Shown here in pieces: positions 1 to 60,773 of a stretch of DNA of 60,773 bases. A program made the translations under genes and the position numbers. Each line of letters opens with the position of its first letter. Position 1 is the first letter of the stretch. Below the pieces are notes generated by a model. The model searched no databases. It saw only the letters and a program-made list of their open reading frames with translations, and was not told the DNA's origin. The DNA is from a virus (Duplodnaviria > Caudoviricetes): positions 1 to 60,773 of the IMG/VR virus record IMGVR_UViG_3300030107_004154; one strand, given 5' to 3'.

Positions 1-135
1 GTAAGAGCTTTATTCATTATTTCAGTGACTTGTTCTGGATCTAACTTCTCGGACAGGTTTGTAAACCCCCTGACGTCGGTGAACAGGAATGTACAAGTAC
101 GTTTCTCCCCTCCTAGCTTAAGTAAACTTGGGTCT
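1..135. repeat. Terminal direct repeat, left copy (identical to 60639..60773 except one base); circular-assembly overlap
   Basis: 1..135 matches 60639..60773; single mismatch G78 vs A60716, synonymous (ACC/ACT Thr) in the cyclase frame. Confidence 0.95.
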
Positions 136-1319
136 TTTTGTAGTCGTGCAACTTGTCCAGGGTCCAGGTAATGTTCGAACTGTTTTTTAATCTGTTGTCT
201 TAACTTGTATTGTTCCCCAAAGCGTAACCAGAATTCTTGTACAGATATAAGTATTAGTGATAATAGGCTATAACTTACGTCAATAAGAATATTTGAAGTA
301 ATAAGATACCAACCACCGACCGCGGTCAACGAACCAAGGCCCACGATCCCTACAATAGTGCCCGCTACGGGTAATGTACGAATTATAACTACGCCTAATA
401 GTAGAACACCAATAAGTATAACTAATTCATATAATATACTTGCTGCAGGAATTTGAGGTGAATCAAAAAATAAACTCTCAGCTAGAGAGGCTTGTACTTC
501 ATGCGGATACAATAAACCAACTGGCGTGGCTATTTGGGGCATCACCCCTTTTGCGCTCACTCCTACAAACACAAACTTATCACGTACATTCATCTCATCC
601 AGAGTAGTGCTCGGAGTATCAACCCAAGATACCCATTTTCTACCTAGCTCATCTGTCTCTATTTCTTTAAAGTTTGGTACTTTTATAGCGGCTATTTGAT
701 TTTGTTCTGTCCGAATAATATAAGTATCTGTAGCTGATAATATTTTTAGTACTTCCGTACCATAAGCTGGAACCCATCCTGTGTCCGTTTGCATAAGCAA
801 AGGAAGTCTTCTTACTAAATTATCTATATCAACCCTTGCTACAGCAATCCCTTCATTAGCTGCTTCACTTAATACATTCGTGTTACCAATCACCCCCGAT
901 GCCAGGATACCGTCCGCACCCTCTCCTAAAACAACTGTCCCAACTGTTGGTGGCATAATGCCACTATTACTTTCAAACATAGCCAGTACACTTGGCGTGC
1001 CCAGCAAAGCTGCACGAAACTCTTCATCTCCGCCAAATCTATCTTCTTGTGGAAAAGCTACAACCCAACCTACACCCATTGCTCCTGCATCCATAAGCTC
1101 GTTATGAATTCGTGCAAGGTCCTGGCGGGGGAAAGGCCACCCACCTGCTTCTGCCACATCTTCTTCTGTTATATCTAACGTTACAAAGTACCCAGTAGGA
1201 TCTGGTGTTTGTACGAGAGCATCAAATACTTTTAACTTAAGTACTTCTAGTGCCTGGAAATTAAATAATAAAGGTAAGCATAGTATTGGTATGCTAAGTA
1301 ACGACAGCCATTTCTTCAT
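1..1319 (-). CDS. CHASE2-domain membrane adenylate cyclase (class III), N-terminal part; continues across the junction into 60203..60638 (584 aa in total)
   Basis: Manual translation from ATG 1319 (ATGA overlap with upstream stop) is open: MKKWLSLL..., CHASE2 motifs GGWPFPRQDLA, DIDNLVRRLPL, KFVFVG, IATPVG; three TM helices; then FLFTDVRGFT. Absent from the ORF track because it crosses the contig end. Confidence 0.9.
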   Translation of the reverse strand, partial: MKKWLSLLSIPILCLPLLFNFQALEVLKLKVFDALVQTPDPTGYFVTLDITEEDVAEAGGWPFPRQDLARIHNELMDAGAMGVGWVVAFPQEDRFGGDEEFRAALLGTPSVLAMFESNSGIMPPTVGTVVLGEGADGILASGVIGNTNVLSEAANEGIAVARVDIDNLVRRLPLLMQTDTGWVPAYGTEVLKILSATDTYIIRTEQNQIAAIKVPNFKEIETDELGRKWVSWVDTPSTTLDEMNVRDKFVFVGVSAKGVMPQIATPVGLLYPHEVQASLAESLFFDSPQIPAASILYELVILIGVLLLGVVIIRTLPVAGTIVGIVGLGSLTAVGGWYLITSNILIDVSYSLLSLILISVQEFWLRFGEQYKLRQQIKKQFEHYLDPGQVARLQKDPSLLKLGGEKRTCTFLFTDVRGFTNLSEKLDPEQVTEIMNKAL

Positions 1320-2395
1320 CCTGATCCTTGTGTAATTGTAATAGTTGAGTTGCCCCCACCATTAACTAATATTTGTTGGTATTTACCATCCTGTATCAAG
1401 ATTATAGTGTACCCTTGTGAGGCGTCCACGGTCAATTGCGCGTTCTGCGTAACCTTTCTTTGGAAGGCAATCTGCTCCCCTTGTAGTATGGTAATAATTT
1501 GTGTTTCTAAGTCCTGTCCTATGCTCGTGCCTTGTACGAGAGTCCCGGTAGCCAGGTTGTCCGATGCTAATTGGTCAATCTCATCTATAATCGCAAGGAG
1601 GTCTTCGAAGAAGTTAACGTCTAAATAATTAATATCAAGCTCTGAAAACTCTAAAGCATCTTCTTCTAGGTAGTCTTTCTCTAGTTCATTAAATTCTAAA
1701 TAATCTATATCTAAAATTGCCCCGCTATCTGCTACGGACGTTGTGGATGAATCTGTGGATAACTCTTGTTCATCTGGTGGGCTTACTATAAGCATGTTAT
1801 CAATAACATCTAGTGTAAGGTCCAATATTACTGGGCTGGAGGGTGTGCTTTCCCAAACAGAAACAGTGGTAGCTTCGTATGGTTTATTGAGGATAACATT
1901 GCCGGCAGCTGTAGCCACAACGATTTCCCCACTAGATAAACCATTAGCGTCAGGTAATAAAATAATGAGAGAACGCCCCAACTCATCAACCGTACAGGTG
2001 AAATCTGTGCCTCGAATAGTAATATCGGCAGTAGGAGTGGAGAGTTTAATATTCTTTTTATCAATTTTTCCTAATTTACTACTTATAAACCTAGCTGTGC
2101 CATTAGCAAACCTAAGGGTCATCTTCCCTTTAGAGGGATTAGGGTCATAAATATATTCAGTTATAACGAGCTTTGAGTGCTCAGTTAGCCGTACAATAGA
2201 ATCGTCCAGGAAGGTTATAGCTACACGACCGGCTGTAGTTCGGACATCGTCCATTTGCCGGATATCAAAATCCAGCTCAGCCCCATAGGGTTGATCTCTT
2301 ATTACTTGTGCAGTTCCAGTTAGTTCAGATATATCCCCAATGTTAGCAACCGGTGCTTGTGCCGCCGTCATTTTGAATGACGCACACAGTACCAT
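1316..2395 (-). CDS. FecR-domain protein with acidic linker and curlin-like C-terminal strands (start uncertain: 2371, 2395 or further upstream)
   Basis: FecR motifs DDVRTTAGRVAITFLDDSIVRLTEHSKLVI and LSTPTADITIRGTDF; acidic LDIDYLEFNELEKDYLEED linker; C-end NGGGNSTITITQGSG. Confidence 0.85.
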   Translation of the reverse strand: MVLCASFKMTAAQAPVANIGDISELTGTAQVIRDQPYGAELDFDIRQMDDVRTTAGRVAITFLDDSIVRLTEHSKLVITEYIYDPNPSKGKMTLRFANGTARFISSKLGKIDKKNIKLSTPTADITIRGTDFTCTVDELGRSLIILLPDANGLSSGEIVVATAAGNVILNKPYEATTVSVWESTPSSPVILDLTLDVIDNMLIVSPPDEQELSTDSSTTSVADSGAILDIDYLEFNELEKDYLEEDALEFSELDINYLDVNFFEDLLAIIDEIDQLASDNLATGTLVQGTSIGQDLETQIITILQGEQIAFQRKVTQNAQLTVDASQGYTIILIQDGKYQQILVNGGGNSTITITQGSG

Positions 2396-3044
2396 TGTTG
2401 CCACTAGAGATAATCTTAAGCCAATCGCTCGCCAATGTAGATGACTGAGTAATATTAAAAGTCCTGCTATTACCTGTCTGATCGAGATAAAAATACCCAT
2501 CTGCATATCCGCTTCCATCAAATGTTATTGAGTTTGAATCTCCATCCACATCAACATAGCTAGTCCCTGTGTCATAGTTAATATCAAAATCAAACTCGTT
2601 GGAATCACCATTAATGATCCAATCTAAATCAAGTGTTGAAGCTAAAGCAGTTGTACCAATATTCAAATCAAAATCATTACTTGAACCTGTTACATCTACA
2701 TTGAAGTCGCCTGAATCCGCTCCGTAAGTATTATTTGGGTCAACTTGTATATCAAATATGTTGCTATCTCCATCAAACTCAAAGAATCCTGTAATGTTAT
2801 CACCTAAGATATCACCTAAGAATTGGTTTGAGCTACCTATTTGGTTTATATCTAAAATAAGATTTAAGCCATCTAGGTCAAGAGCCGTCATAGTACCTGC
2901 AACAGCATCTGTTCCACCAATAATGTTGGAAGAACCTAACTGCTCTAGGTCTATATTAGCGTTGTTTCCAGACTGATCTATATAGATCTCATTATCTGCA
3001 TACAAAAACCCAACTAACAAAAAGAGTGGTATTATTTTTTTCAT
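2343..3044 (-). CDS. Secreted curlin-like (CsgA/CsgB-like) acidic beta-solenoid protein
   Basis: Sec signal MKKIIPLFLLVGFLYA; NEIYIDQSGNNANIDLEQLGSSN and repeated GSSN/GDSN turns; two C-terminal Cys; located next to csgG/csgF. Confidence 0.7.
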   Translation of the reverse strand: MKKIIPLFLLVGFLYADNEIYIDQSGNNANIDLEQLGSSNIIGGTDAVAGTMTALDLDGLNLILDINQIGSSNQFLGDILGDNITGFFEFDGDSNIFDIQVDPNNTYGADSGDFNVDVTGSSNDFDLNIGTTALASTLDLDWIINGDSNEFDFDINYDTGTSYVDVDGDSNSITFDGSGYADGYFYLDQTGNSRTFNITQSSTLASDWLKIISSGNNGTVCVIQNDGGTSTGC

Positions 3045-3853
3045 TCGTAACTCCAATATCCAGCTTGTTCACCCTCCTTGATTATTTCTAATACGGCGGT
3101 TTCGATGGCTGAGCGTAAAGCGAGACCTCCGGACTCATTCCTCACTACTCCGCTTTCTATCTCTACAAGTTCTGTGCCTTGCTCGACAAAACGAAACACG
3201 TCATCTGTTAATGATACACTAAGAACTGTCTTAGTTACTAATTTTTCTACTAAAACTCGCCCAGAGGCTACAGAGATTAAACGTAGTTGAATGGTAAGAG
3301 TATCAGTTCGATATGCTTTAGACATACCAATCCCAAGATACCTAGCCCCCGCGCCACCACTGGTCTCGTTGGCTTCGTACGACACGACCGAACCTTCTAT
3401 TAAGAGGGAGGCAAAGAGAAGGGTCCCAAGGTCAGTATTATCATTGTTTACTTCTCTACCACTACGAATAATTTGGCGCTCTTTAGTCAGATTATCGAGG
3501 CCTATACGTTCTACTACAACAAAAAACCCCCCATTATCTTTGCATGCATCCTTGAGGGCTTTTAACACGTACGCGCTAGGTTGTTGTGTAACTGCGGTAG
3601 AGAAGCTTGCATACATAGAATTACTTAGCCTCTGGCCAGTTTGATCAGTAAAAGCCGTTCCGTACACGGCTACTGTAGGTTTCCTTACCGGTGCACGACA
3701 ACTGGCCAAATCAGTTATAACTAGTTCATCAACACTAGCTGATTCAATGTGTCGTATCGGAGCTATATTATTTTCTATCGGATCGAATAGAAGCGATGTA
3801 CAGCTAGAAAGTAAAAGAACCGATAGGAACTGTAATTTCCGTAACATTACCAT
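3041..3853 (-). CDS. csgG: Curli secretion channel CsgG-family outer-membrane lipoprotein
   Basis: Lipobox LLLSSC; motifs AVY..FTDQTGQR, FSTAVTQ, FVVVERIGLDNLTKERQIIRS, GGAGARYLGIG. Confidence 0.9.
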   Translation of the reverse strand: MVMLRKLQFLSVLLLSSCTSLLFDPIENNIAPIRHIESASVDELVITDLASCRAPVRKPTVAVYGTAFTDQTGQRLSNSMYASFSTAVTQQPSAYVLKALKDACKDNGGFFVVVERIGLDNLTKERQIIRSGREVNNDNTDLGTLLFASLLIEGSVVSYEANETSGGAGARYLGIGMSKAYRTDTLTIQLRLISVASGRVLVEKLVTKTVLSVSLTDDVFRFVEQGTELVEIESGVVRNESGGLALRSAIETAVLEIIKEGEQAGYWSYE

Positions 3854-4265
3854 CTGGGTCCGTTATTTTTAAAGTTATAGATAATCCATCTTCACTAACG
3901 GAATACTCAATGATGTTCCCCATCAATTCTATTATCCCACTAGTAGAAGGAGTATCTCCAAATAGAGCGTCTACTAGCTGTCTAGATAACTGTGCATAAA
4001 TCCTAGACTCAAGGTTACGAATAAACCTTGCTAGGGTAGTATTTTCAGCGTCCCGTTTTAGTTGTTCTTTATAGGCTTTCAGCTCAGCTTTAAGAGCTTC
4101 TTTCCTATTGAACTCTTGATTTTCAATAGTTAAATAGTGTGAAGAAGTTCCCACCCCACTAAAACTAGGGCTTTTGAACTTGTGCACCATTTCATCTGCA
4201 TTTACGTTAATGGCCACAACACTTAGGACCATTACTAAAAACATTATTCCTGTTATTTCTCTCAT
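3804..4265 (-). CDS. csgF: Curli assembly component CsgF-like
   Basis: Signal peptide then ADEMVHKFKSPSFSG (CsgF N-terminal F.NP.FGG-like motif); RFIRNLESRIYAQLS; adjacent to csgG. Confidence 0.8.
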   Translation of the reverse strand: MREITGIMFLVMVLSVVAINVNADEMVHKFKSPSFSGVGTSSHYLTIENQEFNRKEALKAELKAYKEQLKRDAENTTLARFIRNLESRIYAQLSRQLVDALFGDTPSTSGIIELMGNIIEYSVSEDGLSITLKITDPDGNVTEITVPIGSFTF

Positions 4266-4615
4266 TAGTCTTTCCTCTGGTCATCCCTATCTGCTTTAGC
4301 TATTTTATTGCTGTCAATCAGCTGGGGCACACCTAAAATAGTTTTAATTAACGTATCCTGTCTAATGATTTCATTATCCAAACTACGTATCCTATCTATT
4401 AATGCTACCAGTATACCATGCTGTGAATCAAGTTTTGTGCCCAGTCTTTCTTCTATCGCACTTATTTGTTGAGCTACTTTGTCATCTACAATATCAAGTT
4501 TAGTCTCCATGCCATCTACAATACGCATAATAAGCTTATAGATAAACCACCCTAAACCTAACGCAGCAGCTATAGGAAACCCAACTTGTTGGATTATAGT
4601 AACGATATCATTCAT
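4265..4615 (-). CDS. Single-TM protein (YvrJ-like N-terminus) with coiled coil
   Basis: IQQVGFPIAAALGLGWFIYKL hydrophobic helix; coupled by TAATG overlaps on both sides. Confidence 0.55.
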   Translation of the reverse strand: MNDIVTIIQQVGFPIAAALGLGWFIYKLIMRIVDGMETKLDIVDDKVAQQISAIEERLGTKLDSQHGILVALIDRIRSLDNEIIRQDTLIKTILGVPQLIDSNKIAKADRDDQRKD

Positions 4616-5088
4616 TACTTATCGTTAGAGTGTGAGGCCCCAAAATAAAAGGATATGACTGCGCTAGCAAGTCCGCCTAGATACCCTAGGACAAGATTGA
4701 TCAGGGCCTCACTGTTTTGCTCTGGTGGTTGAAGTGTAACTAAAAATATATAACCAAGAAAGCCACCCACCATAGCAATACCGATAATTCTTGCTGTCCA
4801 ATCCTTTGAAAAGGTTTTTCGTGCATCTTGTTTCTCCTGGGTCTCTAACTTGTACAAATCTACATCAAGCTCTTTCATCTTAGCCTCAAAGTCTTTTTCA
4901 GCTTTCTTTATTTCCATTAACTGCTCAGGTGTGGCAGTTGCAATAGCTTTTTCTAATGATGCAGGGTTGTTATCTACCCCTAAAATTTTTGATATGACAT
5001 CTCCTGCCATACCACCTAAAGGCCCGCCTAGAGCAGTACCTAATGTTGGAGCTACGCTCCCGATTATGTTACCCAGTAACTTCTTCAT
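4615..5088 (-). CDS. Putative holin (GTA 3TM-holin-like)
   Basis: VAPTLGTALGGPLGG N-terminus, QEKQDAR, two C-terminal TM helices ending ISFYFGAS. Confidence 0.65.
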   Translation of the reverse strand: MKKLLGNIIGSVAPTLGTALGGPLGGMAGDVISKILGVDNNPASLEKAIATATPEQLMEIKKAEKDFEAKMKELDVDLYKLETQEKQDARKTFSKDWTARIIGIAMVGGFLGYIFLVTLQPPEQNSEALINLVLGYLGGLASAVISFYFGASHSNDK

Positions 5089-5491
5089 ATTTTCCAAGCT
5101 TTAACAGCTCCTCCTTGTTTGCTAAATGTTGTGCTTCGATGTCATCTTTGCTTTGGCCTGTGTAGGCAACAGCTAAGTAATTATCGATCATTGCTTGGTT
5201 TAGGTCTACGCCATCTGCAACAATAACGCCTAAAACCCTACCGAACTTTCCTTTCTTGTCTAATTTGGTTTGTATAAGTAAATCATCTGCATGCAAAATT
5301 GCATCTGACAAATATTTTCCAGCTAGTTTACCTCTAGCTTTTTCATCTAAGTCTCTTGTTCGTGATTCTGGTGTGTCGATTCCGTATAGTCTGACACGGG
5401 ATTTATAAACTATATCAAAACCTAAGTCTATTTCAGCGTCTACTGTATCGCCATCTACAACCCTGGTTATGTTACATTTATACTCGTACAT
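5069..5491 (-). CDS. Thermonuclease (SNase-like)
   Basis: RVVDGDTV, RVRLYGIDTPES, GKFGRVLG motifs. Confidence 0.9.
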   Translation of the reverse strand: MYEYKCNITRVVDGDTVDAEIDLGFDIVYKSRVRLYGIDTPESRTRDLDEKARGKLAGKYLSDAILHADDLLIQTKLDKKGKFGRVLGVIVADGVDLNQAMIDNYLAVAYTGQSKDDIEAQHLANKEELLKLGKYEEVTG

Positions 5492-11571: not shown

Positions 11572-12024
11572 TTATACATTATTAAGAACCGTCGTTTGTA
11601 ATTCTAGACTCCTTCTTCCTACTTGTTTAAACCACCTAGAGTCTTCCATTTCTCTAGCCATACGCTCCCAATCATGTTCTCTACAAGCTTCTAACATGTT
11701 TTTAAAGTTAGAAAGCCTATTGCCCCCTAGGTTAAAACACATGTTTACTAGTACATGTTGGATATCTTCAGGGAGATTATAAAAGCCATCTTCTGACCCA
11801 AACACCTTAACAGCTTCTTCTAAATGTTTTTCAAAATCGTGTTCAAAGTACATATCTACTACTTCTTGTGACACGGGAGTTCCTATATCCAATACGTATT
11901 CTGGTTCCCCTTTTTGACATAGGTGACCAATACCAAGTGTTTTATATCCTAAACTATCTTCGTATATCTCTAAAACTTCACCTTCATGTCGTTTTATGTC
12001 TTCTTTACACTGTTCTATATTCAT
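11572..12024 (-). CDS. Endolysin, T4-lysozyme-like (GH24)
   Basis: Catalytic E-x8-D-x5-T pattern HEGEVLEIYEDSLGYKTLGIGH; NMCFNLG; SRWFKQVGRR. Confidence 0.92.
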   Translation of the reverse strand: MNIEQCKEDIKRHEGEVLEIYEDSLGYKTLGIGHLCQKGEPEYVLDIGTPVSQEVVDMYFEHDFEKHLEEAVKVFGSEDGFYNLPEDIQHVLVNMCFNLGGNRLSNFKNMLEACREHDWERMAREMEDSRWFKQVGRRSLELQTTVLNNV

Positions 12025-13913: not shown

Positions 13914-15746
13914 CTAAATTGTATCATTAGGGAACCTCTGAGACCATATGGTCAAGCTATACTTAGTACCACTTTTTAACTCTAAACATTCATGTGGGTG
14001 GGTTACAGCCCCTGGAAATAACAATAGTTTACCTACAGGGATATCTTTATTACTTAGGTTTTGACGTGGGAAACTTAGTTCTCCCCCCTCATATCCTTCG
14101 TTTAGTTTAACAGACCCTGTGACGTAGGAAGCATCATGATGTAAAGATAACTTAGTCTGTGTTTCAGGTGAATATTTAAGAATAAAAGCATCTCTTAAAC
14201 CATACATTAATAAAGGCTTCCAATGTTTTTCAGCGATTGGGGCAATATATTTTTGCCAGTGAAATTCTAACATTTCCCAAAGTTCTAGTTGTTTTAAACG
14301 TATCTCTTGTGCAGGAAACTTATCATAATCTAAACTTTTCCAATTCCCATTAGCATTGGCCATATTAATAAGGTCTTCACATTGAGAAATAGTCATAAAA
14401 TCTACTAGAAGCATGTCATTCTCGAGGAGTTCATATTCTCCTAGGTTAGCTATAAATAAAGAAGATTGATTTGGATAAAGTTTTTGATACAGGTTTTCAA
14501 AATGTTTTTTAGCCTCAGCCCCACCATTTCCATGGTAGATACAAGGGCAGCAAATACCATTATCTAACTGTCCATTTGTAACTTGTATTCCAGGTTCATG
14601 TGTTTGAAAAATGTAACCCTCAGTATCTAACACAATATCATAAAGGCCTTCAAGATAAGCTTCTTGGTAAAAAAGCTGGTCATCTTCTTGGTCTGTTATA
14701 TTTGAGTGGCTTAATATTTTTTTTAGTTCTCCTACTTCTCCTATAAAAGTTCCAGAATTAAGGTAACGGTAAGGGGTATTAGTTGGAGGGAATTGTTCAG
14801 CTATACTTTCGTCTGGCCAACAAACAGATTCCGCTGAAAACACAACCTTGTGGTTAAACCCTTTATAACGTTCTTTTATAGTATGTAGAGTATCTGCATA
14901 AAACACGTCGTACGCGTCTGTGAAGAGTACAATATCCGTGTCCGGAAGTTCTTCATACTCCATATGGGCCTTTAAGAGGTTTATTTTCATTCCACCCCCA
15001 GGGCCAGTCATATCAGTACCATTCCATTGCACTTTTTCTCCAATGTTTAGGTATTTAATACCTTGGACATGGGCTGAATTTCTTAGCTTGGTAAGTTTAT
15101 TTTCCTCTGTACCTATCGTTATTACATGAACAGTACTCGCCTCTCTTATGTCTGATGGTAAAATATCAACACTAGCTTGATTACAAGCATCCTGTGATAA
15201 AGCAAGAGCATTAAAAGAATGCTTTTGTATCATCTCTGGTAAGTACTCATCTACAGGGATAATACCCGATAGAATATCTGTTTTTAATAACTTCCTAGCT
15301 CCTTTAGGTCGTATTACATAAGCAGTAGTATTGTAGGGATACCAAGGCCTTTCTAGTCTATCGTCTATTCTATTTGTTCTTTCTGGTTCATTTTCATTAC
15401 GTTGTAAGTATAAGAAGTCCCAACTATCTATAACTTTTTCATAATATTCTTCATCCCAAGTTTCATTAATAATTGCGTCATCTTCAAGTACTATAATTGG
15501 TTCATCCAGTTCTACACATTTCTCCCAAGCTTTTCTGTGGGATAAGAAACAGGCTACTTCAGTAGGAAGAATAGGTCTATTAAGAAAAGGATCTACCCAT
15601 CCCTCTCTTGTTGGATACATTGAAAGGTCCTCTAGCTCCCCATCTACGGCTGTTATGAATTCTACAGAAAGGTTGTTATTTTCTATAAAATGGTCCCGTC
15701 TATCTTCCCGTCTTTCTAAATTGATAACAAACTTTTTTAACGCCAT
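13914..15746 (-). CDS. Trifunctional collagen-modifying enzyme: GT25 (COLGALT-like) + PLOD/LH3-type glycosyltransferase + lysyl-hydroxylase-like 2OG-Fe(II) oxygenase
   Basis: GT25: VINLERREDRR, GWVDPFLNRP, CFLSH, LEDDA, GARKLL..PVDEYLP. PLOD-GT: GGGMKI, FTDAYDV, FSAESVCWP, YLNSGTFIG, DDQLFY, HGNG. LH: LSLHHDAS, YEGG, PGAVTHPHE. Confidence 0.88.
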   Translation of the reverse strand: MALKKFVINLERREDRRDHFIENNNLSVEFITAVDGELEDLSMYPTREGWVDPFLNRPILPTEVACFLSHRKAWEKCVELDEPIIVLEDDAIINETWDEEYYEKVIDSWDFLYLQRNENEPERTNRIDDRLERPWYPYNTTAYVIRPKGARKLLKTDILSGIIPVDEYLPEMIQKHSFNALALSQDACNQASVDILPSDIREASTVHVITIGTEENKLTKLRNSAHVQGIKYLNIGEKVQWNGTDMTGPGGGMKINLLKAHMEYEELPDTDIVLFTDAYDVFYADTLHTIKERYKGFNHKVVFSAESVCWPDESIAEQFPPTNTPYRYLNSGTFIGEVGELKKILSHSNITDQEDDQLFYQEAYLEGLYDIVLDTEGYIFQTHEPGIQVTNGQLDNGICCPCIYHGNGGAEAKKHFENLYQKLYPNQSSLFIANLGEYELLENDMLLVDFMTISQCEDLINMANANGNWKSLDYDKFPAQEIRLKQLELWEMLEFHWQKYIAPIAEKHWKPLLMYGLRDAFILKYSPETQTKLSLHHDASYVTGSVKLNEGYEGGELSFPRQNLSNKDIPVGKLLLFPGAVTHPHECLELKSGTKYSLTIWSQRFPNDTI

Positions 15747-16309
15747 TTTGGTCCCTCCACCCAAGATACTAAAGATTTACGAATACCTTTAGTTACAGGT
15801 AAAACCCTATGCCGTATTGGGGAGGGGAAAACTAAAATAGTGCCTTGTTTCTTTAGAAGGTCTTTATCTGGGGCTTCATACTGAGGTTCAAGTTCAAACT
15901 CTCCCCCTTCATATTCTGAAGGATCAGAAAGTTGAATTATTATACTTAGCTTCCTGTCATAACTAGAAGGGTTCCCCCAGAAAGTGTCATGGTGCCAATT
16001 ATAATGTCCTTCTTCTGTACCTTTATATGTAGTAAATTGAATATCCCATACGTTTGTAATATCAAGTCCAAAAGCTGCTCTATTGGCACTAGATATATAA
16101 TCCCAAATTATTTTTTGAATTGTAGGAGAAGAATTTGGAGAGACCCAACGTAGTTCAGATCTACGTACGGTTAAGTCTTCCTTGGATTCCATGTTACTCT
16201 GATGTCCAATCTTTGCTGTGACTGGTTCATAGGTTTCACATTCTTTTACTATTGCTTCAACTGTAGCGCGGTCTAGTTCGCCGGCCCACATTTGCCAAAT
16301 TGCTTTCAT
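15737..16309 (-). CDS. 2OG-Fe(II) oxygenase (prolyl-hydroxylase/PKHD-like)
   Basis: HYNWHHD (HxD), RKLSIIIQL, YEGGEF, FPS..RHRVLPVTKGIRKSLVSW. Confidence 0.9.
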   Translation of the reverse strand: MKAIWQMWAGELDRATVEAIVKECETYEPVTAKIGHQSNMESKEDLTVRRSELRWVSPNSSPTIQKIIWDYISSANRAAFGLDITNVWDIQFTTYKGTEEGHYNWHHDTFWGNPSSYDRKLSIIIQLSDPSEYEGGEFELEPQYEAPDKDLLKKQGTILVFPSPIRHRVLPVTKGIRKSLVSWVEGPKWR

Positions 16310-16324
16310 AACACCTCCTGTGTT

Positions 16325-18934
16325 TTATTTATCTTCTAGTTTTCTTATTCTAGAGTCAAGGTCTTCATACCCTTCTAGATCATATAAATCTTTTGGAGTA
16401 TGCGAATCTATTGCTAGTTCTTTAATTGCTTCAACTAAGAGTGGAATAACTTTTTCGTACCAAATAGTTAAGTAATCCCCATGTATAGGAGCTTCTGTAA
16501 CCACTTCTGGGAGAACTTTTTGTACTTCTTGAGCATTGAGTCCTACTTGACGCTTGTCGTTGTCATATCCTAAGCTACGAGCTAATTCATTCTCTTTAAA
16601 GTAATATCCTGTAAGTTGTAAAACTTTTTCAAGAGCATCTACTATTGGCCCTTCAAATTCTTTTAATCTTTCATCAGAGTAATAAGCAGTAATATTATTA
16701 GTTGCCCTAATTTCACCTGCTGTGCCACTTGCTGCTGTGCCTGCCCCTAAAGAGTTTAATTGAGTATTAGAACTTGTGCTTATCCCTGCCCCTGTCGGTC
16801 CTGTAGGTCCCGTCGGTCCCGTCGGTCCTGTAGGTCCGGTTGGCCCTGTAGGTCCGCCACCCCCTGTTGAACCTGGGGCACCTTTTTGTCCTTTACTTCC
16901 GTCCGAACCATCATCACCACTCGGTCCAGTAGGTCCTGTTCCACCTGTAGGACCAGTTCCACCAGAAGGCCCAGTCGGCCCAGTTGGGCCCGTTCCACCA
17001 GAAGGCCCAGTTGGGCCCGTTCCACCAGTTGAACCAGTAGCTCCTTTTTGTCCTTTTTGTCCTTTAGAACCATCTGATCCATCTGACCCATCGCTTCCGC
17101 CTGGTCCAGTTGGTCCAGTTGGACCTGTTCCACCAGTTGAACCGGTAGCTCCTTTTTGTCCTTTTTGTCCTTTGGCCCCTGCGGAACCATCACTACCATC
17201 GCTACCCGCAGGTCCCGTTGGTCCTGTGCCCCCGGTTGGTCCAGTTCCGCCACTTGGGCCCGTAGACCCAACTTCTCCTTTTTGTCCTTTTGAACCGTCT
17301 GATCCATCTGACCCGTCTGAACCAGCAGGTCCTGTAGAACCTGTAGGTCCACTAGCTCCTACCTCACCTTTTTGTCCTTTAGAACCTGTAGGTCCCGTTG
17401 GGCCTGTTCCTCCAGTAGGTCCTGCTCCTCCTGTAGATCCAACTTCTCCTTTTTGTCCTTTTGAACCGTCTGAACCATCACTACCATCTGAACCAGCGGG
17501 TCCAGTAGGTCCAGTAGGCCCTGTTCCTCCAGTTGATCCAACTTCACCTTTTTGTCCTTTTGAACCGTCTGATCCGTCTGATCCCCCTGGCCCTGTTGGT
17601 CCTGTTGGTCCTGTTGGTCCTGTAGGACCGGTTGGGCCGGTTGGGCCGGCTGGTCCTGTGTCTCCAACATCACCCGTTCTTGCAAAAGTAACTACTACAT
17701 TATTGCCATTGCCAAAGGGGCTTGCTGCCGAACTATCAACATTACTTACTGTTATATCAAAGTATCCACTTGCTTCTGATAAACTTGAAATTGTATAAAG
17801 TAGAAATTTATTAGCATCTGTTTTTAATGAAATTTTTACATGCCCTTTAATAGTAGAAGTTGAATCATCTATTGTTCTTAAGAAAGATTGAATATCACTG
17901 GAACCAGCATCAGCATCATCTATATAGATACCTGTAGCACCATTCTGAGTTGAATTATCTAGTCTAAGGGTTCCCGCTCCAGGGTCCGCATTAGTTGTTG
18001 TAGTGCTGAAAGCATATTCAAAAGATTGTCCACCAAAATTACCTTGTGGTCCGGTAGGACCTGTAGGACCCGTAGGACCTGTACCTCCAGTTGGGCCTGT
18101 ACTACCCCCTGGTCCTGTTGAGCCTACTTCTCCTTTTTGTCCTTTAGACCCGTCTGAACCATCTGAACCATCTGAACCTGCTGAACCGCCAGGACCGGTA
18201 GGACCCGTAGATCCAACTTCTCCTTTTTGACCTTTATCCCCAGCTGAGCCTCCAGGACCTGTAGGGCCTGTGCTTCCTGTTGAGCCTACTTCTCCTTTTT
18301 GGCCTTTAGAGCCATCTGAACCATCTGAACCATCTGAACCTGCTGAACCTGTAGGGCCGGATGGGCCTGTGGGACCCGTGGAGCCAACTTCTCCTTTTTG
18401 GCCTTTCGCCCCGGCTGAACCATCTGAACCATCTGAACCTGTTGGGCCTGTTGGACCTGTACTACCTCCTGGCCCAGTTGGACCTGTTGGACCTGCCCCT
18501 CCAACTTCTCCTTTTTGTCCTTTCTGCCCTTTTATACCACCAGTGGGGCCTTGCCATTCACCTGAGCTATTAATAACCTCAGAGCCACCTATTTTTACAC
18601 CAGTTATGTCAATGACACCTGTTTGAGAGTTTTGGTCTAATTGAGGAAACGTTTCTAAGACTTTAGCTGTTAAACGTAGATCACAAGCATCACCAGCATC
18701 AAAAGAACGTGCTGAAGTTCCGTCTTGTTCACGGACTACTGTGAGCGTATTACCGCTCCTGGCAGTTACTTTAACTACCTCATTGTTTGTCCCGTCATCA
18801 AACGTTACATAAAACGACTGTCCGCTACTTAGTGTAGGAAAGACCGAACCATCTGTAACTCCAATACTGGTAACAGAGGTGTTGATATCTCCTGATAGAG
18901 TCGTAGTCGCATTGTTCTTAAAAACAATTGCCAA
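16325..18934 (-). CDS. Collagen-like tail fibre with C-terminal peptidase-S74 intramolecular chaperone
   Basis: Two long Gly-X-Y tracts ([15 protein letters not shown]) separated by a ~120-aa globular insert; YYSDERLK...[17 protein letters not shown]...LLVEAIKEL. Confidence 0.92.
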
Positions 18935-50810: not shown

Positions 50811-52587
50811 TTTTGAAACTTACTATGACGTACAGCTTTCTTTGACAAAAATGTCTACAGTGCAATACGTAAATCACTCAGATTTTAAAGTGTGGGGCGT
50901 AGGAATAAAGGTAGAAGATAATGAAACCGAATGGTATAACGAGGAAGAAACCCCGGCCATTTTAGAGCAAATCGATTGGGATAATACAGCCCTGGTTTGC
51001 CATAATACATTATTTGACGCTTATATTCTTACACAATACTTCGGGTATAAACCAGCGTATTATTATGATACAGCGGCAATGAGTCGTGGTTTGTACCCGA
51101 ACATGTCTGCAGCTCTAAAGAACTGTGTGAAACGTGAATTTCCTAACGATGAAACTATGCGTAAAGGAGAGGAACTTGTTAATGCTAAAGGCGTGCGAGA
51201 TTTAGATCCTGAGCTTGACGCACAGATCGGTGGGTATTGTATCCAGGACGTGGACTTGACGTACGCATTATTCCAAAGATATATGACCAACTACCCGGAC
51301 AAAGAGTTAGATCTCATCGATCTTACCGTACGAATGTTTGTTGAACCTAGATTAATGTTGGACCGTGGTCTATTGTCCGCTTATAAAGAAGAAATGGTAG
51401 CTCGAACACAAAAAGCTATCCAGGACTCCGGCATTACACGAGAAGTTTTAGCTTCACAAGTTAAGTTTAAAGAATATTTAGAATCTTTAGATATAGTTGT
51501 GCCTACTAAAAAGAGCCCTACTACTGGACAAATGATACCTGCTTTCGGTAAAAATGACCCGGGTTACCTTCAGATGTGTAACATGTATCCAGAACATAAC
51601 AACATATGGGAAGCTAGAGAGTTTGTTAAGTCTCGTATAGAAGAAACCAGAGCTCAGCGATTTATAGACTCAACTAATCCTGACGGTACCTTTAGTGTCC
51701 CGCTGCGTTATTATGCGGCACACACAGGACGCTTCGGGGGTGCTGATAAAATTAACTTACAAAACCTCCCCCGGGGTTCAAAATTACGTACGGCACTTAT
51801 GGCCCCTGAAGGACAGAAGTTATTTATTGCGGACTTATCTAATATTGAAGCTCGAATGCTTGCTTGGTTAGCTAAAGAAGCTGATTTACTTGACGCATTT
51901 GCTACAGGACGTGATGTGTACTGTGAATTTGCATCTCAGATATATGGTCGCACGATTACGAAAGAGAATAAATTAGAAAGATATGTCGGTAAAACAGCGA
52001 TCCTGGGGCTGGGGTACGGCATGGGACATGTTAAGTTCCAAGCCACACTGAAGACAGGATCCCCATCGGTAGATGTGTCCGACAGCGTTGCACAAAATAT
52101 TGTTATGCAATATAGAGGAATGTATCCAAACATACCATTACTCTGGTCAGGTATGAAAGACTGTTTATTTCAGATGATTAATCCTAGATCTATAGGAAAT
52201 ATGTATGGTCCATTAAAGATAAACTCTCGTGCCTTAGAATTACCTAATGGTATGGCTCTTAATTATCCTAATTTAAACTACGATAGAGGAGAGTTTATTT
52301 ATTCAACTGAAAAAGCTTACATACGTACACATGGACCTCGAGTTACAGAGAATGTCGTACAAGCCTTAGCTAGGCTGGTTATAACCGATCAAATGTTAGA
52401 CATACAAACACTACCACAGGTAGACATTGTAATGCAGGTTCACGATGAAATAATAGCTATTGGCTCTGATGTTGATTCAGATGCTACAATGGAACAAATA
52501 ATAGATATCATGCGTACTCCACCAGAATGGTGTTCAGATTTACCGCTTGATGCAGAAGGTGGAATTAGTCAAGTATATGACAAATAA
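50791..52587 (+). CDS. DNA polymerase family A with 3'-5' exonuclease
   Basis: ExoI LDFET, ExoII HNTLFD, ExoIII YCIQDV; HTGRFGG, NLQN; motif A DLSNIEAR, motif B RYVGKTAILGLGYG, motif C VHDE. Confidence 0.95.
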   Translation: MQKIYLDFETYYDVQLSLTKMSTVQYVNHSDFKVWGVGIKVEDNETEWYNEEETPAILEQIDWDNTALVCHNTLFDAYILTQYFGYKPAYYYDTAAMSRGLYPNMSAALKNCVKREFPNDETMRKGEELVNAKGVRDLDPELDAQIGGYCIQDVDLTYALFQRYMTNYPDKELDLIDLTVRMFVEPRLMLDRGLLSAYKEEMVARTQKAIQDSGITREVLASQVKFKEYLESLDIVVPTKKSPTTGQMIPAFGKNDPGYLQMCNMYPEHNNIWEAREFVKSRIEETRAQRFIDSTNPDGTFSVPLRYYAAHTGRFGGADKINLQNLPRGSKLRTALMAPEGQKLFIADLSNIEARMLAWLAKEADLLDAFATGRDVYCEFASQIYGRTITKENKLERYVGKTAILGLGYGMGHVKFQATLKTGSPSVDVSDSVAQNIVMQYRGMYPNIPLLWSGMKDCLFQMINPRSIGNMYGPLKINSRALELPNGMALNYPNLNYDRGEFIYSTEKAYIRTHGPRVTENVVQALARLVITDQMLDIQTLPQVDIVMQVHDEIIAIGSDVDSDATMEQIIDIMRTPPEWCSDLPLDAEGGISQVYDK

Positions 52588-52771
52588 AAATTTAATACTT
52601 ACAAGAAAAAAAGGTAATAAGGTTTACGTACATGATGGGGCTGAAGTAGTCTGTGTAGTAACCGTAACTGATATATCAACTAGTCAAGTAAAGTTAGGAT
52701 TTGAAGCAAGTTCTAATATTAAAATCGACAGAGAAGAAGTGTTTAATGCTAAAATTAATAAGGAGGAATAA
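52577..52771 (+). CDS. csrA: CsrA/RsmA-like carbon storage regulator
   Basis: LILTRKKG, QVKLGFEA, IDREEV. Confidence 0.8.
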   Translation: MTNKNLILTRKKGNKVYVHDGAEVVCVVTVTDISTSQVKLGFEASSNIKIDREEVFNAKINKEE

Positions 52772-59942: not shown

Positions 59943-60200
59943 TTAGGCGTACTTAGATTTTTTGCCTGCCTTCTTATTTCTAGCATAAGATCGGTTAGAA
60001 GAAGCACTACGTATTTGTAAATTATCTGGACTTGAATCCATTGGGTTACCATTTCGATGATGAACATCACGTCCGTCCCCTTTTCGTACACGCCCATCTC
60101 TCATTGCTTGACGACGTGCTTTGTTTCTCATTGCTCGTCTTTTCTTTTGTGCTGGACTACCTTGATATCTATCGTATTCTTGTCTGTAATTTCTAGCCAT
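59943..60200 (-). CDS. Small HNH-like endonuclease
   Basis: RNYRQEY, RNKARR, GDGRDVHHRNGNP, NL...SSNRS. Confidence 0.75.
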   Translation of the reverse strand: MARNYRQEYDRYQGSPAQKKRRAMRNKARRQAMRDGRVRKGDGRDVHHRNGNPMDSSPDNLQIRSASSNRSYARNKKAGKKSKYA

Positions 60201-60202
60201 AG

Positions 60203-60638
60203 TTAAACAGTATACACCTTTAAGGCTTTTTTCTTACCTTTAACATACATGTTTCGTACAAACTTCACGCCCACCTTCGGTGGTATTTTTTTGTATGTGC
60301 TTTCCCCAATTAAAATATCTACCTTTGCTTCTTTCGTTGCACTCTCTAATCGTGCCGCTGTATTCACAGCATCTCCTATCGCACTGAAATCAAATCTTGT
60401 ATCACTTCCCATATTGCCTACTACAGCTTCACCTGTATTAACACCTATCCCTATTGCTATCGGTTCGGGCAATTTGTCCTGGAGTTCCTCCATTGCCGTA
60501 CGCATATCCTGAGCACATGCCACAGCACGTTGTTCGTGGTTGTCTAGATTTAAAGGAGCATTAAATATCGCCATACACGCGTCTCCTATGAACTTATCAA
60601 CCATACCGCCATGTTTTTGTATACACTCAACTTGCACA
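60203..60638 (-). CDS. Adenylate cyclase catalytic domain, C-terminal part of the gene starting at 1319
   Basis: DKFIGD, IGIGVNTG, GNMGS..RFDFSAIGDAVNTAARLE, VKGK; in frame across the junction. Confidence 0.92.
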
Positions 60639-60773
60639 GTAAGAGCTTTATTCATTATTTCAGTGACTTGTTCTGGATCTAACTTCTCGGACAGGTTTGT
60701 AAACCCCCTGACGTCAGTGAACAGGAATGTACAAGTACGTTTCTCCCCTCCTAGCTTAAGTAAACTTGGGTCT
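60639..60773. repeat. Terminal direct repeat, right copy
   Basis: Matches 1..135 with one synonymous mismatch. Confidence 0.95.

Follow-up and report, generated by a model that had tools for sequence, protein, structure and literature searches.

Why should a tailed phage carry the genes for a curli-type outer-membrane pore directly beside those for a membrane-spanning sensor cyclase? The question is raised by a gene block in IMG/VR virus record IMGVR_UViG_3300030107_004154, whose whole stretch of 60,773 nucleotides is referred to here as the window. Five overlapping minus-strand genes encode, in order, a CsgF-like protein, the CsgG lipoprotein, a curlin-like protein, a FecR-domain protein, and a class III cyclase with a CHASE2 domain and four transmembrane (TM) helices. 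A first-pass annotation, made from the sequence, had named the five genes in these terms, and Pfam matches for four of them and a fold model for the curlin-like protein agree with it. The same annotation proposed that the set relays a surface event across the envelope into synthesis of cyclic adenosine monophosphate (cAMP), an idea that is reasonable, partly supported by our analysis, and absent from the literature searched. The reading we prefer, at a probability of roughly 0.45, is that a curli-type pore and fibre are monitored on their periplasmic side by a FecR/CHASE2 pair that sets cAMP synthesis. Homology and fold modeling point to the pore and the fibre; co-occurrence and adjacency in bacteria, together with published work on Sinorhizobium meliloti and Burkholderia, argue for the FecR–CHASE2 partnership; and it is strict synteny that suggests a link between fibre and sensor.

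The gene block itself has already been published, and the window supplies one more copy together with comparative evidence. The first-pass view that csgF and csgG alone were known from marine phages is outdated. The cluster was first reported by Zaragoza-Solas et al. 2020 (PMC7029224), and the full block was described by Wittmers et al. 2022 (PMC9599517), in the order HK-CsgF-CsgG-CsgA/B-FecR-(CsgA/B)-AC (HK, histidine kinase; AC, adenylate cyclase), in nine podovirus genomes of HTVC023P type as well as in pelagimyophages. According to Wittmers et al., the region is of alphaproteobacterial origin, has moved between virus families, is present at all 65 stations analysed, is represented in metatranscriptomes, and may serve aggregation, superinfection defence or import (PMC9599517). 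Searching phage records with tblastn, we found FecR in six and CsgG in seven, six of each being copies from Pelagibacter phage HTVC008M and Methylophilales phage Melnitz, where the annotations read CsgF, CsgG, curlin-associated, FecR/hypothetical, a further curlin-like/hypothetical, and adenylate cyclase. Compared with this pelagiphage type VIII secretion system region (HTVC008M KC465899, Melnitz MZ577097), the window genes stand in identical order with 32–49% protein identity to HTVC008M, whereas the second curlin-like gene that the myophages carry between FecR and cyclase is missing from the window. A blastn search with the block against cultured phages gave no match. In the available text of the three papers on the phage region (Wittmers, Zaragoza-Solas, Buchholz) CHASE2 goes unnamed, with 0 occurrences in the main text of Wittmers et al. 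and 0 of "cyclase" in the other two. Within the literature searched, CsgG, adenylate cyclase, FecR and phage came together only in Wittmers et al., and CHASE2 and curli only in a single paper, on S. meliloti.

The pore genes are readily recognised. The CsgF-like secreted protein (3804–4265, minus strand) matches PF10614 at E 8e-15 over profile positions 4–132 of 132 and phrog_35372 at E 3e-43; phmmer with this protein against solved CsgF structures gave nothing at E up to 1. CsgG, the outer-membrane lipoprotein of the curli pore (3041–3853, minus strand), matches PF03783 at E 7e-45 and carries an LSSC lipobox in its translation. Aligned with Escherichia coli CsgG (E 1.7e-38, residues 46–268), it retains the FSTAV of the channel loop and has a Ser at what we take to be the position of E. 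coli Asn55. The third gene (2343–3056, minus strand) encodes a predicted secreted beta-solenoid, the presumed fibre subunit, assigned from its fold model and a conserved signal peptide. Its relatives share this signal peptide, repeats centred on a G-x-S-N motif, and a pair of invariant Cys residues in the C-terminal part. Pfam returned nothing for the protein at E 0.01, Curlin_rpt reaching E 0.037 with 14.4 bits (cut-off 20.7), and the same family matched weakly in seven of 14 relatives, at best with E 3.3e-4. The structure model is all beta, with a predicted local distance difference test (pLDDT) score of 75 and a predicted template modeling (pTM) score of 0.72. Its top VIA match is the CsgA of Pontibacter korlensis (8c50_A; Z 17.6, 196 aligned residues, 24% identity, root mean square deviation 8.8), and the E. 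coli CsgA fibril follows at Z 11.0 among many other beta-helices; Foldseek against the PDB found no match at E 0.001 or better. The phage set thus shares with the E. coli curli system (CsgG-CsgF-CsgA/CsgB) CsgG, the CsgF family and a beta-solenoid substrate that aligns with CsgA fibrils. It differs in that no CsgE, CsgC, CsgD or separate CsgB is recognised, in that its substrate barely matches Curlin_rpt, and in the addition of the FecR protein and the CHASE2 cyclase. In agreement with the first-pass annotation, CsgE, CsgC and CsgD had no Pfam match in the block or in the 57 window open reading frames (ORFs) scanned; the 13 large ORFs for structural and replication proteins were compared with PHROGs alone.

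The fourth gene (1316–2521, minus strand, likely start GTG at 2404) encodes an exported protein with a FecR domain (PF04773, E 5e-11), an acidic linker and a small C-terminal beta region. Stops interrupt the opening ~26 codons of the longest FecR frame in five of the 12 relatives checked, and conservation of the signal peptide begins around codon 40; translation therefore probably starts near 2404 and not at 2521. In the structure model the FecR domain has pLDDT 60–82 and the remainder less than 50, for a mean of 47.7. A curlin-like repeat at the C-terminus was considered and dropped, the profile-profile match covering 12 C-terminal columns with a probability of 0.7% and E 0.084. The periplasmic FecR domain and the idea of signalling inward from the outer membrane are held in common with FecA-FecR-FecI; however, the signal peptide of the phage protein is cleavable, and the protein lacks the cytoplasmic anti-sigma part, the membrane anchor and a recognised C-terminal transducer-binding domain. 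Neither an extracytoplasmic function (ECF) sigma factor nor a TonB-dependent transducer was recognised in the phage with Pfam and PHROGs. In the published accounts of the pelagiphage region, FecR is read as an iron regulator. With PF04773 and a signal peptide as its only recognised features, and neither kind of partner recognised in the phage, the protein gives no support to the label "iron-dependent regulator".

The cyclase gene lies across the ends of the window and is not cut. The window represents a closed genome unit of 60,638 bases with a terminal direct repeat (1–135 and 60639–60773; 135 bases, 1 mismatch), and the frame is open across this junction, giving a full cyclase of 584 amino acids with no stop interrupting the frame. 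The 5' part (3–1319, minus strand) encodes TM1, the periplasmic CHASE2 domain (about residues 21–292), three TM helices and the start of the cyclase, of whose catalytic domain it holds the first 30 residues; the 3' part (60203–60773, minus strand) encodes the class III catalytic domain. The architecture given in the first-pass annotation, CHASE2 followed by three TM helices and a class III cyclase, holds: PF05226 matches residues 14–310 at E 3.5e-29, the helices read from the translation fall one before CHASE2 and three after it, and an intact copy with 97–98% identity (locus L004) matches both CHASE2 and Guanylate_cyc (PF00211, E 2.5e-22). Against solved class III cyclases the catalytic domain scored E 4e-35, with both metal Asp residues, Lys, Asn and Arg aligned (2w01, 6fht). 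The purine-site Lys of the phage enzyme aligns with a Lys in 6fht and a Glu in 2w01. We take this position to be the adenine-specificity site of class III cyclases, the second specificity residue being Ser here. Given the full catalytic set and the adenine-type Lys, the product is probably cAMP. Across 21 relatives down to 30% identity, the alignment of the CHASE2 cyclase keeps 42 invariant columns. A complex prediction for the mature FecR protein and the periplasmic CHASE2 domain scored 0.00 twice and, run without controls, counts neither way. The single mismatch of the terminal repeat, G versus A at position 78, lies inside the cyclase gene, and the record is classed as linear. Next after the cyclase, a gene at 59943–60200 (minus strand) encodes a small basic protein of phrog_4590 with no Pfam match, and a protein of this family also follows the cyclase in many relatives, with 48–65% identity.

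The order of these genes is strictly kept among related viruses. A FecR relative is encoded in 294 of 321 candidate stretches of the viral collection. Synteny was counted in the best 80 loci; these come from the nearest relatives, and the figures accordingly apply to this one sub-lineage. Every locus with at least 3.3 kb of upstream DNA (49/49) has p116, the small gene ahead of csgF, followed colinearly by csgF, csgG and the curlin-like gene, and every locus with at least 2 kb downstream (69/69) has the CHASE2 cyclase next after FecR, the gap exceeding 300 bases in six of the 69. The synteny check set out with the first-pass annotation therefore did not refute its proposal, the genes being colinear in every assessable viral locus. 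In L004 (2620–3343), a fragment of a C-5 cytosine DNA methylase (profile positions 1–171 of 324) lies between the FecR and cyclase genes. A phage contig binned in a metagenome-assembled genome (MAG) carries the block without the cyclase (L086, 2645–4344), the FecR gene being directly followed by a holin-like membrane gene. A scan of genome contigs yielded seven loci, six of which look by gene content like phage contigs in MAG bins; only L090 looks bacterial, from a genome too fragmented for adjacency to be judged. The window stretch was found in 20 runs from seven marine or seawater studies dated 2014–2024. Nineteen are DNA runs holding at least half of the window's sequence words, two of which may be its source, and the twentieth is a metatranscriptome library holding one tenth of them. 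Three contigs from the RNA library are identical to the window (2508–2726, 2703–2900 and 2994–3187) and fall on the curlin gene and the terminal part of csgG, with DNA carry-over possible.

Comparative support for a FecR–CHASE2 sensing unit comes from bacteria. Our sample comprised 301 alphaproteobacterial genomes, in which phage-type FecR was defined by a match to profile A1 at E 1e-10 or better; 136 genomes were positive for CHASE2, 100 for phage-type FecR and 38 for CsgG. CHASE2 was present in 84 of the 86 FecR-positive genomes common to both samples, against a baseline of 136/301. Among the matches listed (the best 150 of each), at least 27 FecR/CHASE2 pairs lay within 5 kb on one contig, compared with about 1.7 expected at random; two further pairs lay at 5–7 kb, and five came via one giant FecR-bearing frame. 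Published work describes similar arrangements. In Burkholderiales a FecR gene adjoins CHASE2 kinases (PMC5192318), and in the Burkholderia "BiofilmReg" operon (response regulator, LysM-FecR, CHASE2) an exported FecR-domain protein is encoded directly before the CHASE2 receptor, as in the phage; the operon differs in its histidine kinase output, in the LysM domain on its FecR protein, and in having no pore genes (PMC5192318). In S. meliloti, CHASE2 cyclases operate downstream of NsrA, a protein of the outer membrane (PMC13001267); a FecR domain is present in SMc02177, and cAMP synthesis by pCyaD1-deltaCHASE2 is constitutive (PMC5498481). This NsrA-CyaD1/CyaD2/CyaK pathway resembles the phage set in that CHASE2 cyclases answer an outside signal via an outer-membrane protein, with the FecR-domain protein SMc02177 in the circuit. 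However, NsrA is a beta-barrel and not CsgG, the FecR-domain gene is dispensable for signal perception, and the system is bacterial.

The bacterial FecR and CHASE2 genes also often stand beside other secretion routes. ABC, HlyD and OEP genes flank six of the 20 CHASE2 loci sampled, and RTX giants with an N-terminal FecR domain are encoded in two of these six, L107 (G185:C1) and L099 (G101:C54). In L095 (G159:C33) a CHASE2 cyclase sits in a type I operon, where the evidence for a FecR-headed giant is a domain match lying outside the sequence retrieved. Like the phage block, these type I operons combine a CHASE2-class III cyclase, a secreted protein with a FecR domain and a dedicated outer-membrane exit. 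The exit is ABC/HlyD/OEP in the operons and CsgG/CsgF in the phage, and FecR heads a giant cargo in the former, whereas the phage encodes a separate protein of 360 amino acids. We found no description of a type I operon with a CHASE2 cyclase and FecR-headed RTX giants in the literature searched. In L111 a Slam-like gene directly precedes the CHASE2 match. A 1.2-Mb genome of the SAR11 family (L114, 8049–15931, G105:C1) encodes a CHASE2-SpoIIE protein, an unknown protein of 435 amino acids and a FecR protein of 504 amino acids, with a ShlB/POTRA (TpsB) transporter three genes beyond the latter. Streamlined hosts can therefore own a native module of the same design.

Under the reading that we prefer, CsgG and CsgF would assemble a curli-type pore in the outer membrane of the infected cell, and the Sec-exported curlin-like solenoid would leave through it as a fibre subunit. 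The exported FecR-domain protein would remain in or cross the periplasm as a partner or ligand of the CHASE2 domain, which would in turn set the activity of the cytoplasmic class III cyclase. Candidate purposes of the signal are aggregation, exclusion of other phages and lysis timing. The cassette may thus represent a curli-pore variant of a design more widespread in bacteria, in which a CHASE2 receptor and a FecR protein are placed beside an outer-membrane secretion route. A bolder form of this proposal, which we hold to be possible but doubtful, makes the cassette the viral, curli-pore member of a large, as yet undescribed class of "secretion-coupled CHASE2 sensors", with FecR reporting the state of the fibre and the phage converting a surface event to cAMP. 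The outline of such a class is just as tentative: FecR would be periplasmic at a type I, two-partner, Slam-like or curli exit, either free or as the head of the cargo.

Several observations weigh against periplasmic monitoring of a fibre. The parts are known by homology only, and we infer the links between them, contact and signal direction included. No CHASE2 or FecR match among those listed came within 15 kb of any of the 48 CsgG matches in the bacterial sample, and CsgG was absent from the five genomes whose phage-like FecR domains scored best. The sample thus contains no precedent for coupling curli to FecR/CHASE2, and simple co-carriage is therefore possible; the union of the curli pore with FecR/CHASE2 is a phage feature in this sample, as Wittmers et al. 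state. The trans-envelope relay of the first-pass annotation consequently fares differently in its two halves, the FecR–CHASE2 sensing unit gaining support from co-occurrence and close pairing and the tie to curli finding no bacterial counterpart in the sample. In addition, a first Pfam pass over the 20 best-scoring CHASE2 loci found no FecR, which makes FecR a non-obligate neighbour of CHASE2. A second look found FecR in four of them (L099, L104, L107 and L113); ORF calls were wrong-stranded in the GC-rich L094, L102, L111 and L112 and also in L098, where two attempts found no CHASE2 frame, so neighbours at these loci are uninformative. The proposed output raises a further difficulty. Pfam searches of 57 phage ORFs detected no cNMP_binding domain, and the domain occurs in only two of 41 SAR11-type family genomes. 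With the search for cNMP_binding, the only receptor type tested, near-empty, the cAMP output is left without a recognised reader. Finally, Buchholz et al. 2022 report that Melnitz-infected cells did not clump.

Two membrane proteins encoded ahead of csgF bear on how the block might act. The conserved first gene of the block, p116 (4265–4615, minus strand), encodes a single-pass membrane protein of 116 amino acids, with one TM helix and a coiled coil. A counterpart also stands ahead of csgF in HTVC008M and Melnitz. From position alone, we equate it with the published "histidine kinase" gene. A histidine kinase identity was rejected, as no kinase domain appeared even at E 1 and neither HisKA nor HATPase_c was found. 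The protein falls in viral-only, unnamed atlas clusters, the nearest named ones being Holin_BhlA and the Mu releasin family, with scores below 0.9 that make them leads only. The adjoining gene (4615–5097, minus strand) encodes a membrane protein of phrog_1544 (E 1e-26) that is possibly holin-like. Its likeness to a holin is below threshold (GTA_holin_3TM, E 0.19), and it is not a fixed member of the block, a neighbour of this type standing before the block in 15 of the 80 loci and after the cyclase in 21.

The most direct alternative to a monitored pore is plain curli production, in which an amyloid coat would serve aggregation ("sibling capture") or shielding against other phages, and FecR and the cyclase would regulate expression or travel as separate cargo. 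CsgG, CsgF and a CsgA-like solenoid are all present, hypotheses of this kind have been published by Wittmers et al. and Zaragoza-Solas et al., and the RNA-library contigs, subject to possible DNA carry-over, match the curlin gene and the terminal part of csgG. The first-pass statement that the set is something other than a plain curli operon is also unsupported, as the curlin-like fold resembles CsgA and alphaproteobacterial curli modules likewise lack CsgC, CsgD and CsgE (PMC9599517). We nevertheless regard curli production by itself as rather unlikely: it leaves unexplained both the strict order of FecR/CHASE2 with the pore genes and the tight FecR/CHASE2 pairing in bacteria without curli, no cAMP-reading transcription factor is recognised, and the lack of clumping after Melnitz infection counts against it as well. 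The strict order is equally awkward for a take-over of the host by cAMP alone, in which the cyclase would flood the cell with cAMP or drain its ATP, reprogramming metabolism or blunting defence, and the secretion genes would be unrelated. The catalytic residues are intact, and the synthesis would be new to most SAR11-type hosts, in which a class III cyclase domain was found in two of the 41 genomes. However, the CHASE2 sensor has been kept, its 42 invariant columns in 21 relatives arguing for regulated rather than constitutive output, and no cAMP reader is recognised; such a take-over appears distinctly improbable.

The remaining alternatives concern the pore. In a device for lysis or envelope permeability, CsgG/CsgF, perhaps with p116, would open the outer membrane or time lysis, and the cyclase would provide timer input. 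A lysis-timing pore was proposed by Buchholz et al. 2022, and the faintly holin-like neighbour adjoining the block in some loci, together with the Holin_BhlA and Mu releasin leads for p116, would suit such a role. The holin likenesses are nevertheless below threshold, a simple hole needs neither CsgF nor a conserved fibre-like substrate, and the lysozyme-like gene (11572–12024) is 7 kb distant, which leaves this proposal improbable in our estimation. Alternatively, an ungated CsgG channel could admit cofactors or nutrients, an idea raised in PMC9599517 and PMC7029224 and compatible with the absence of a recognised CsgE-like protein from the block. An import pore of this kind seems highly improbable, for it leaves CsgF, the fibre-like protein, FecR and the cyclase unaccounted for, and an outer-membrane pore by itself moves no solutes over the inner membrane. 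Periplasmic monitoring of a curli-type route by the FecR/CHASE2 pair thus remains our preferred reading.

The genome in which the cassette sits is that of a tailed phage, as judged by portal, TerL and capsid, and the virus contig is rated 100% complete. According to PHROGs, the minus strand carries terminase, portal, capsid, internal virion protein and tail fibres, and the plus strand the replication genes; within this ~60.6-kb podovirus-like genome, the cassette is placed at the extreme end of the strand of late, structural genes. The best relatives of the capsid (54%) and terminase (42%) are KPP25-like Pseudomonas podoviruses, and Aeromonas phage phiA008 is also related. The tail type of the window phage is deduced from the KPP25-like podoviruses. 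Size, G+C content and ORF number agree with the published HTVC023P-type figures, and yet only four of 46 proteins match the HTVC023P-type representative MW574966, of which the first 50 kb were compared; in the literature searched, nothing connected HTVC023P to KPP25-type phages. Contig PBPT01000002.1 (60,834 bases; L084/L085) holds a whole phage genome closely resembling the window and is binned in a Candidatus Neomarinimicrobiota MAG, a placement that probably reflects a binning error and says nothing about the host. A CsrA homologue (52547–52771, plus strand; PF02599, E 1.5e-11) is encoded amid the replication genes and is a possible post-transcriptional factor in host take-over. Directly 3' of a collagen-like tail fibre gene, two minus-strand genes (13914–16309 and 16325–18934) encode GT25, PLOD-type glycosyltransferase and 2-oxoglutarate (2OG)-Fe(II) oxygenase domains, which look like a collagen hydroxylation and glycosylation set for the fibre. 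No tRNAs were found in the window genome, and promoter-like sites were not enriched (16, against 17.7 in shuffles).

The block is abundant in ocean phages, and through the cassette a planktonic cell would acquire secretion machinery and a second messenger that it otherwise lacks. If the host is of SAR11 type, the phage would bring cAMP synthesis to a cell without a recognised cAMP reader. Should the idea of secretion-coupled sensing be true, a phage in a host lineage mostly without cAMP signalling must bring or exploit an unknown cAMP reader. If the FecR/CHASE2 pair does monitor a secretion route, this would provide a first partner for CHASE2, whose signal was called unknown in 2016 (PMC5192318), and would link the cassette to bacterial modules of the type I, two-partner and Slam-like kinds.

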